A program made the position numbers. 64,000 nt of DNA. Origin: Escherichia coli (GTDB lineage Bacteria > Pseudomonadota > Gammaproteobacteria > Enterobacterales > Enterobacteriaceae). The stretch lies in the NCBI RefSeq assembly GCF_003991155.1, contig NZ_CP031293.1; one strand, 5' to 3'. Shown here one piece after another: positions 36,601 through 39,600 of the stretch (position 1 is the first letter of the stretch; each line of letters opens with the position of its first letter).

Positions 36601-39600
36601 CCCGCAAATCAAAATTGAAACTCTGGTGCCGGATTTCCGCGGTCGTATGGATCGTGCTCTGGATATTCTGACCGCCACACCACCAGATGTGTTCAACCAT
36701 AACCTGGAAAACGTACCGCGTATTTACCGTCAGGTACGGCCTGGTGCAGATTACAACTGGTCGCTGAAGCTGCTGGAACGCTTTAAAGAAGCGCATCCGG
36801 AAATCCCGACCAAGTCTGGTCTGATGGTGGGTCTGGGTGAAACCAATGAAGAAATTATTGAGGTAATGCGCGACCTGCGCCGTCATGGTGTGACGATGTT
36901 AACGCTGGGGCAATATTTGCAGCCAAGCCGCCATCACCTGCCGGTTCAACGTTACGTTAGCCCGGATGAGTTCGACGAAATGAAAGCCGAAGCGCTGGCG
37001 ATGGGCTTTACCCATGCTGCATGCGGTCCGTTTGTCCGCTCGTCTTACCACGCCGATTTGCAGGCGAAAGGGATGGAAGTTAAGTAATCCTGTAATAATT
37101 ACTTACATCTGTCTGATAAAAAACCCGCTTTTTGAAGCGGGTTTTTTGTATCGAACAAGATATTGAGGGAGCGTCCTGCTCGCCACGTCACTCTTTATGA
37201 GAGAGCTTTTCAGCCTGAAGATCAACGTCTGCGCCTTTTTTCGCCGCAGCATCGTCATCATTCATCGCCTTCTTGAACCCTTTAATGGCCGCTCCAAGGT
37301 CTCCGCCCAGCGTACGTAACTTCTTAGTCCCAAACAGCAGAACGACCAGCGCCGCAACTACCAGCAGTTTGGTAATACTAATCTCACCCATAGATACCTT
37401 CTTGACATATAACCGGCAACAGAACGCGCCTTAAAAACCAGAGAATATTAACGGTCATTCGACGCGCGCACACAATAGCAATCTGTAACAAGGTGAATCA
37501 AGCGCCGAGTAAAAAAACATCATAATAATTGCGGCGGCGCAAAGCGACGGTTGTTTAAGACGGGCAGTTGCGCGCGCACCTGACGCACACGTTCGGGCGT
37601 CACTTCCGCCATAATGAGTGCAGGCATTTCTGACGCTGCCGCAATGGTGACGCCAAAGGGATCTATAATCCGGCTTTGCCCGATATTTTTGTTCCCGCAC
37701 TCCCCCGCCGCCACCATATAACAGGTGGTATCCAGCGCACGAGCGGCAAGCAACGTTGACCAGTGATGCTCTTTGAGCGGCCCACGAACCCAGGCAGCAG
37801 GAAGTACCAGGATTTCAGCTCCCTGTAATGCCTGTGCCAGCGCCAGCTCTGGAAAGCGTAAGTCATAACAGGTCATCAGACCGACCTTCATCCCTTCCAC
37901 CTCCAGTAACGGAGCTATTTCATTACCAGCATCAACATGGCGTGATTCCTGAATGGCAAATGCATCATAGAGATGAAGTTTGGCATAACGGGCGACGATG
38001 TTTCCTGCCTGTAGCGCCACCAGCATATTCCATGCGCGCCCCGGCGTTGAAGGAACATGAATCGTCAGAATTGTCGTCATCATGTTACGTTTACTTTCTC
38101 GACGTAAACGTCCGAGGAATTCGCCTTCCAGCAGCTGTGCTGATTTAACCGATAGATCTGCATCATGATCATCACGCGCCAACAATGCTTCCGGCAGGAC
38201 AAACAGCGAAACGTCGTTTTCCGCCGCCTGCGCCATCAACGAGGCACAAATCTCAGCGTTCTTTTCCCACACAGATGTCACAGCAAACTGTCCTGCGGCA
38301 ACCAGCATTGCCACCTCCTCCTGTCAGAGTCGTAAAATTCGCCAACGGCGATTATTCGGCGTTACACTTATCACTCATACAAATCAAATAGCAGGATTTT
38401 GCAGTGTTACAACTTCTTTTAGCAGTTTTTATAGGCGGTGGTACGGGAAGCGTGGCGAGATGGCTGTTAAGTATGCGATTTAACCCGCTGCATCAGGCGA
38501 TTCCGTTGGGGACGCTGGCAGCCAACCTGATTGGGGCATTCATCATAGGAATGGGATTCGCCTGGTTCAGCAGGATGACGAACATTGATCCCGTGTGGAA
38601 AGTATTAATCACCACCGGATTTTGTGGCGGTCTAACAACCTTCTCAACATTTTCGGCAGAAGTGGTGTTTTTGTTACAAGAGGGTCGCTTTGGCTGGGCA
38701 TTACTGAACGTTTTCGTCAACCTTCTGGGGTCTTTTGCCATGACCGCACTGGCTTTCTGGCTGTTTTCGGCCTCAACCGCACACTAAAGACCAAAAAAAA
38801 CCCGCTGATTAAGCGGGTTTTGAATTCTTGCTGACGTATCTTACAGAGCGATTACGTTTGCAGCAGAAGGGCCTTTGGCACCGTTAGTGATTTCGAACTC
38901 TACGCGCTGACCTTCAGCAAGAGTTTTAAAACCATTAGTCTGGATTGCAGAGAAGTGTACGAACACGTCTTTGCTGCCGTCTTCCGGAGTAATGAAACCG
39001 AATCCTTTGGACTCATTAAACCACTTAACGTTACCTTTAATCTTAGACATCAAAATTACCTTTACATGAAAAATAGACACAAATGCTGTGTCGGTTACCA
39101 GTACACCAATTGTGGTACGCTTTGTCCAGTGCAACTTTACTAAAAAGTGATAAAAGTCGCGTTATTTTTGATGTTAATTATTTTAGTGGTTGATTTTAAA
39201 GAATTTACTAAAACTTCATTTGTCTCAAAACTGAAAGCGCATCCAGGCAAAGTACACATTGCCATTGTTGTAGGTACCCGGAATGTAGGTCATCTGAAAC
39301 GTCGCGGGGCCATACCCCACAGAGGCCAATGGCAGTAGAACCGGGAGAGGGATGTAATTCCAGTTATCGCGTGCCGTTACGCCAGCGGTGAATCCCAGGC
39401 CTAAATGAAAATTTTCATCTGCCAGCGGTCGCCAGGTACTTTCCCATCCGTATCCGGCAATCGGTTCCCATTTGTTCCACGAGTCCTTAAATGCCATGGC
39501 ATACAGGCCATGCCAGTTTCCTTTTTCGTCCCAACGCGACTGACCAAAACCGCCACCCCACGGTCGCTCGTTATAGCGATCGGTTTTTTCTTTGTCATAG

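Follow-up and report, generated by a model that had tools for sequence, protein, structure and literature searches.

An uninterrupted ybeM gene, predicted to encode a Nit1-type deaminated glutathione amidase, in an Escherichia coli chromosome, and the minority deletion allele of K-12

The stretch of DNA analysed here (64,000 nucleotides of Escherichia coli, contig NZ_CP031293.1 of assembly GCF_003991155.1; hereafter the window) is part of the E. coli chromosome; several complete genomes match the first 25 kb of the window at 100% identity. Within it, ybeM occupies the orthologous position between crcB and tatE. The gene order pagP-cspE-crcB-ybeM-tatE-lipA is common to the window, K-12 MG1655, K-12 ER2796 and ECCNB12-2, and is read in reverse in the window. 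The features of the locus are given below in window coordinates, with the basis of each in brackets:

36122-37087, plus strand: lipA (ORF listing)
37188-37391, minus strand: tatE (ORF listing)
37520..38308, minus strand: most likely ybeM coding sequence (ORF listing; same-length RefSeq CDS in NZ_CP033635.1; Pfam; NCBIfam)
37520-37522, minus strand: TGA stop of ybeM, after 262 codons
37868..37870, minus strand: codon of Cys147, the predicted nucleophilic cysteine (in the alignments, opposite the cysteine of the CYD motif in 1EMS and in 4H5U, yeast Nit2)
37979..37981, minus strand: codon of Lys110 (AKLHL), the predicted catalytic lysine (in the alignment, opposite the lysine at residue 127 of 1EMS in chain numbering, motif KLHL)
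38109..38109, minus strand: G (gene strand, codon 67) present in the window and deleted in K-12 and related genomes (global alignment against NC_000913.3)
38189..38191, minus strand: codon of Glu40 (LPE), the predicted catalytic glutamate (in the alignment, opposite the glutamate at residue 54 of 1EMS in chain numbering, motif LPE)
38312..38314, minus strand: in-frame GTG, source of a 264-codon count and probably not the start (overlaps the Shine-Dalgarno tract; the RefSeq start is the ATG at 38308)
38314..38322, minus strand: Shine-Dalgarno tract AGGAGGAGG, with a 5-nt spacing to the ATG (sequence read and MG1655 alignment)
38404-38787, plus strand: crcB (ORF listing)

The ORF listing gives, on the minus strand at 37520..38314, an ORF of 264 amino acids which opens on GTG and has zero internal stops. 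A sequence-only reading of the window had described an uninterrupted ORF of 264 codons; the continuity holds, while the length is probably 262 codons, counted from the ATG at 38308. The GTG overlaps the Shine-Dalgarno tract AGGAGGAGG at the final G of the latter, and the ATG, two codons further on, sits 5 nt after AGGAGG. RefSeq protein WP_001305561.1, in a record 100% identical to the window, is encoded by 789 nt (262 amino acids) and starts at this ATG. In view of this overlap and of the RefSeq annotation, the GTG was rejected as the start, and the coding sequence most likely comprises 262 codons plus the TGA. The tract itself exists in two forms, AGGAGGAGG in the window versus AGGAGG in K-12, the additional AGG unit appearing as a 3-nt indel of the crcB-ybeM intergenic region in the alignment with MG1655. 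Records with a span of 1021 nt have the longer form, while a span of 1018 or 1017 nt goes with the shorter one.

The K-12 gene has been regarded as a pseudogene, and this status, cited in the sequence-only reading, is borne out by the annotation of MG1655 ybeM (b4581, 788 nt) in NC_000913.3 and by the 'frameshifted' flag given by PGAP to the copy of ER2796. The pairwise alignment which that reading proposed as a check also locates the lesion. MG1655 ybeM shares locus and orientation with the window gene, at about 98% nucleotide identity, and global alignment reveals a single indel within the gene: in codon 67, the bracketed G of CTCGGAC[G]TTTACG is missing from K-12. At this point the sequence of the window is CTCGGACGTTTACG, the G at 38109 being in place, and not the K-12-type CTCGGAC-TTTACG. 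Translation of the K-12 copy yields 66 native and 9 out-of-frame residues before a stop (75 amino acids), a product which retains Glu40 and loses Lys110 and Cys147; re-insertion of the G restores the full 262-amino-acid protein with no stop. Besides the deletion, K-12 differs from the window by the substitutions V33A and V37A and by the AGG unit missing from its Shine-Dalgarno sequence.

The same allele is found elsewhere in the species. ECCNB12-2 (NZ_CP033635.1, WP_001305561.1) is identical to the window at the DNA level over 1021 nt, so its 262-amino-acid protein is identical as well; its neighbours are also arranged as in the window, with crcB upstream and divergent and tatE downstream, and nothing different was detected. 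On a broader scale, of 5426 complete E. coli genomes, 5424 contain the ybeM locus. In 859 of these 5424, natural isolates included, the exact K-12 deletion allele is present, as counted by exact matches to a 71-nt query with the K-12 deletion at its centre. In an evenly spaced sample of the exact matches, eight out of ten were natural isolates (from humans, river water, farms and faeces) and not laboratory strains, and in the deletion-allele isolates KMi006 and WCHEC005784 ybeM is flagged as 'frameshifted'. An evenly spaced sample of the remaining 4565 genomes consisted, with one exception, of records spanning 72 nt, i.e. with the G present, and the six non-deletion records inspected, among them UTI89, O157:H7 LSU61, O104:H4, OV24 and ZF31, were all annotated as intact. 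Around 84% of complete E. coli genomes are without the exact K-12 deletion allele, a share which is an upper bound on intactness, the count covering this one lesion.

The lone exception (H100; NZ_CP157110.1, strain UTME-9) is annotated as 'nitrilase-related carbon-nitrogen hydrolase' and frameshifted. In the UTME-9 assembly, pagP, cspE, crcB, ybeM, tatE and lipA are all flagged as frameshifted. This case was rejected as a real gene loss because frameshifts in every neighbouring gene point to sequencing error in an error-rich assembly, and records of this kind would inflate an automated census of pseudogenes.

An intact ybeM is the E. coli norm, and the broken copy of K-12 is a minority state. 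Intactness is thus the common condition of the species and nothing particular to the strain of the window. The intact gene was also already known, as RefSeq names the identical protein WP_001305561.1 "deaminated glutathione amidase". The pseudogene status of K-12 belongs to textbook annotation, and the majority of the species carries the intact allele, so that neither is new.

The encoded protein is a member of the nitrilase superfamily. It matches the Pfam family PF00795 (CN_hydrolase) at 4.3e-41, with 141.4 bits against a gathering cut-off of 23.2, over residues 5-247 and profile positions 2-255 of 256. Moreover, it belongs to the NCBIfam family NF033621 (de_GSH_amidase, deaminated glutathione amidase), scoring 451.5 bits, where the curated cut-off is 355, in an end-to-end match (residues 5-263, profile positions 2-260 of 260). 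The best relatives of solved structure are Caenorhabditis elegans NitFhit (1EMS, 1.7e-29) and yeast Nit2 (4H5U, 1.1e-26), both of the Nit1 branch, with which the homology spans the whole CN-hydrolase domain. Given homology to solved members at 1e-29, YbeM would probably share the alpha-beta-beta-alpha sandwich of the superfamily. YbeM is a stand-alone protein of 262 amino acids without the Fhit fusion, unlike NitFhit, and is also without the insertion which splits the match to the yeast protein into two stretches.

The Glu-Lys-Cys triad is kept: in the alignments with 1EMS and 4H5U, Glu40 falls on LPE, Lys110 on KLHL and Cys147 on CYD, the motifs which form the catalytic triad of the nitrilase superfamily. 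The active-site cysteine context pointed out in the sequence-only reading is present in the ORF, and its cysteine, Cys147, is the one which pairs with the CYD cysteine of both structures.

Deaminated glutathione (dGSH; 2-oxoglutaryl-Cys-Gly), a damaged glutathione, is a side product of transaminases acting on glutathione. The E. coli homologues are reportedly good dGSH amidases, E. coli YbeM being said to have been assayed by Peracchi and colleagues in 2017. The dGSH amidase Nit1 is reported to be conserved and to occur in many bacteria, and the mammalian enzyme catalyses the reaction that is assigned to YbeM (PMC7041631). As predicted from the family, YbeM would cleave the amide bond of dGSH to give 2-oxoglutarate and Cys-Gly. 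As elsewhere in the nitrilase superfamily, attack by Cys147 on the amide carbonyl would create a thioester acyl-enzyme, with Glu40 acting as the general base and Lys110 stabilising the tetrahedral intermediate or oxyanion; hydrolysis of the thioester intermediate would then release 2-oxoglutarate and Cys-Gly.

Substrates of nitrilase-superfamily enzymes are hard to assign from sequence alone, and the ORF could be intact and active while its physiological substrate is something other than dGSH, either because it is an omega-amidase acting on 2-oxoglutaramate or 2-oxosuccinamate or because it is another small-amide amidase. E. coli YafV and the mammalian omega-amidase Nit2 have superfamily, fold and catalytic chemistry in common with YbeM; mouse Nit2 (2W1V) is still a clear homologue at 4.4e-22, and several further NCBIfam amidase models match the window protein weakly. 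However, the top relatives in the PDB are of the Nit1 branch, with 2W1V ranking below both 1EMS and 4H5U, although the margin between Nit1-type and Nit2-type matches is modest (106 versus 82 bits). The literature places the two in separate orthologous groups, with YbeM under NIT1 / deaminated glutathione amidase and YafV under NIT2 / omega-amidase (PMC8788347). The YafV-type model NF007757 is described by NCBIfam only as 'amidohydrolase' and was treated here as the E. coli omega-amidase model because YafV carries the name NIT2 / omega-amidase in that publication. The window protein fails it, its 61.5 bits falling short of the cut-off of 249 and its match being restricted to residues 90-254, in contrast to the score well above the cut-off obtained with the dGSH-amidase model. 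We consider a different physiological substrate improbable.

The comparison of alleles indicates that the protein is maintained. Six intact alleles differ pairwise by 5-14 synonymous versus 0-3 nonsynonymous changes, with pN/pS between 0.0 and 0.12; overall there are 33 segregating sites when three repaired K-12-type alleles are counted with the six intact ones. These values indicate strong purifying selection on intact ybeM alleles, under which the protein would be preserved. Given the family domain, the score above the NF033621 cut-off, the Glu-Lys-Cys triad and the purifying selection on the alleles, it is reasonable to infer that the window allele would produce an active enzyme. The sequence-only reading had proposed a functional amidase/deaminase: the amidase is retained as a prediction, with deaminated glutathione as the substrate, whereas the deaminase is abandoned.

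The gene might nevertheless be intact and yet dead or silent in this strain, as a not-yet-decayed copy heading for the loss seen in the K-12 lineage. It is dispensable, about 16% of complete genomes carrying the frameshift allele, and K-12 ybeM serves as a neutral insertion/integration site (PMC4788846). Furthermore, a simple consensus scan of 37150-38500, crcB-ybeM intergenic region included, found no sigma-70 consensus promoter, which is a weak negative. This scenario is extremely unlikely in our estimation, as a pN/pS of 0.03-0.12 among intact alleles of divergent lineages argues for continuing selection on the protein, all catalytic residues are kept, and a strong Shine-Dalgarno sequence lies 5 nt before the ATG. 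In addition, the ybeM transcript of CFT073 has been measured, at 0.30-fold on nitrate treatment, and the gene is therefore transcribed in at least that strain (PMC5320621).

Other signals around the gene were few. Terminator-like sites in 37150-38500 amounted to two weak ones, no more than in shuffled sequences, and a search of the crcB-ybeM intergenic region for a fluoride riboswitch or any other Rfam family returned none at E<=1. Besides weak, terminator-like matches attributed to chance, the Rfam search yielded only a cspA-type model over cspE. This is the cspA thermoregulator RF01766, which spans cspE and its leader (38793-39241, minus strand) with 136.1 bits against a gathering score of 78, a match which reflects the paralogy of csp genes and of their 5' UTRs.

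Taken as a whole, the ORF is with high confidence an intact E. coli ybeM allele at its usual locus, predicted from its sequence to encode a Nit1-type deaminated glutathione amidase. A role of YbeM in metabolite repair or salvage, and not in core metabolism, would fit this assignment and is consistent with the dispensability of the gene. K-12 is atypical at ybeM, in that most E. coli retain a gene for a glutathione-repair amidase which is predicted to work. In this respect, the species is under-represented by metabolic models or dGSH measurements that rely on K-12, and integration at ybeM can be justified as 'neutral' only for K-12-type backgrounds. The annotation of the window gene should read "intact deaminated glutathione amidase"; beyond such bookkeeping, the importance of the finding is small.

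The deletion itself appears to be young. Apart from the 1-nt deletion, the frameshifted copies of WCHEC005784 and KMi006 are the intact ZF31 allele, and because the repaired copies are identical to it the deletion is a recent event in evolutionary terms. In K-12 it is accompanied by two nonsynonymous changes, V33A and V37A, and zero synonymous ones, which hints at relaxed constraint or drift after inactivation and may be consistent with it, tiny as these numbers are.

A possible regulatory link of ybeM comes from CFT073, where the NsrR ChIP-seq summit falls at ybeM +345 (PMC5320621). In the window, the sequence ATGATGCATTT at 37958-37968 on the minus strand (ybeM +341..+351) resembles an NsrR half-site, with one mismatch to AANATGCATTT; the 11-nt NsrR half-site in the ytfE site is AAGATGCATTT. 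At most a few bases separate this intragenic motif from the published summit, and its 11 nt are invariant across the nine ybeM alleles compared. Only the positional coincidence is notable: as a general feature of the window the motif was rejected, one-mismatch matches to AANATGCATTT being at chance level (10 versus 9.4 expected). One could combine these threads and suppose both that the loss of ybeM is recent, possibly adaptive and spreading in one natural E. coli sublineage, and that ybeM is tied to nitrosative stress. Were both true, regulation would couple the repair of dGSH to NO and glutathione chemistry, or there would be a trade-off between the two; we regard this conjunction as highly unlikely.

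Elsewhere in the window, a 2847-bp ISEcp1-blaCTX-M-55 transposition unit (57979-60825) is inserted in the chromosomal citR, a LysR-type regulator gene. Its features are as follows:

57973-57978 and 60826-60831: TAATAG duplication flanking the unit
58246-59121, minus strand: blaCTX-M (NF033089, 626.8 bits versus 570)
59377-60639, minus strand: IS1380-family transposase (329.6 bits)
ending at 60825: left inverted repeat CCTAGATTCTACGTCAGTACT of the ISEcp1 unit

In the closest complete genomes, namely 2016C-3878, CREC-544 and AR Bank #0349, both flanks are 100% identical to the window and the citR site is without an insert. Plasmids of the same three strains bear an identical unit, annotated as CTX-M-55. 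It looks, from this comparison of sequences, as if the ESBL gene had moved from a plasmid to the chromosome, disrupting citR.
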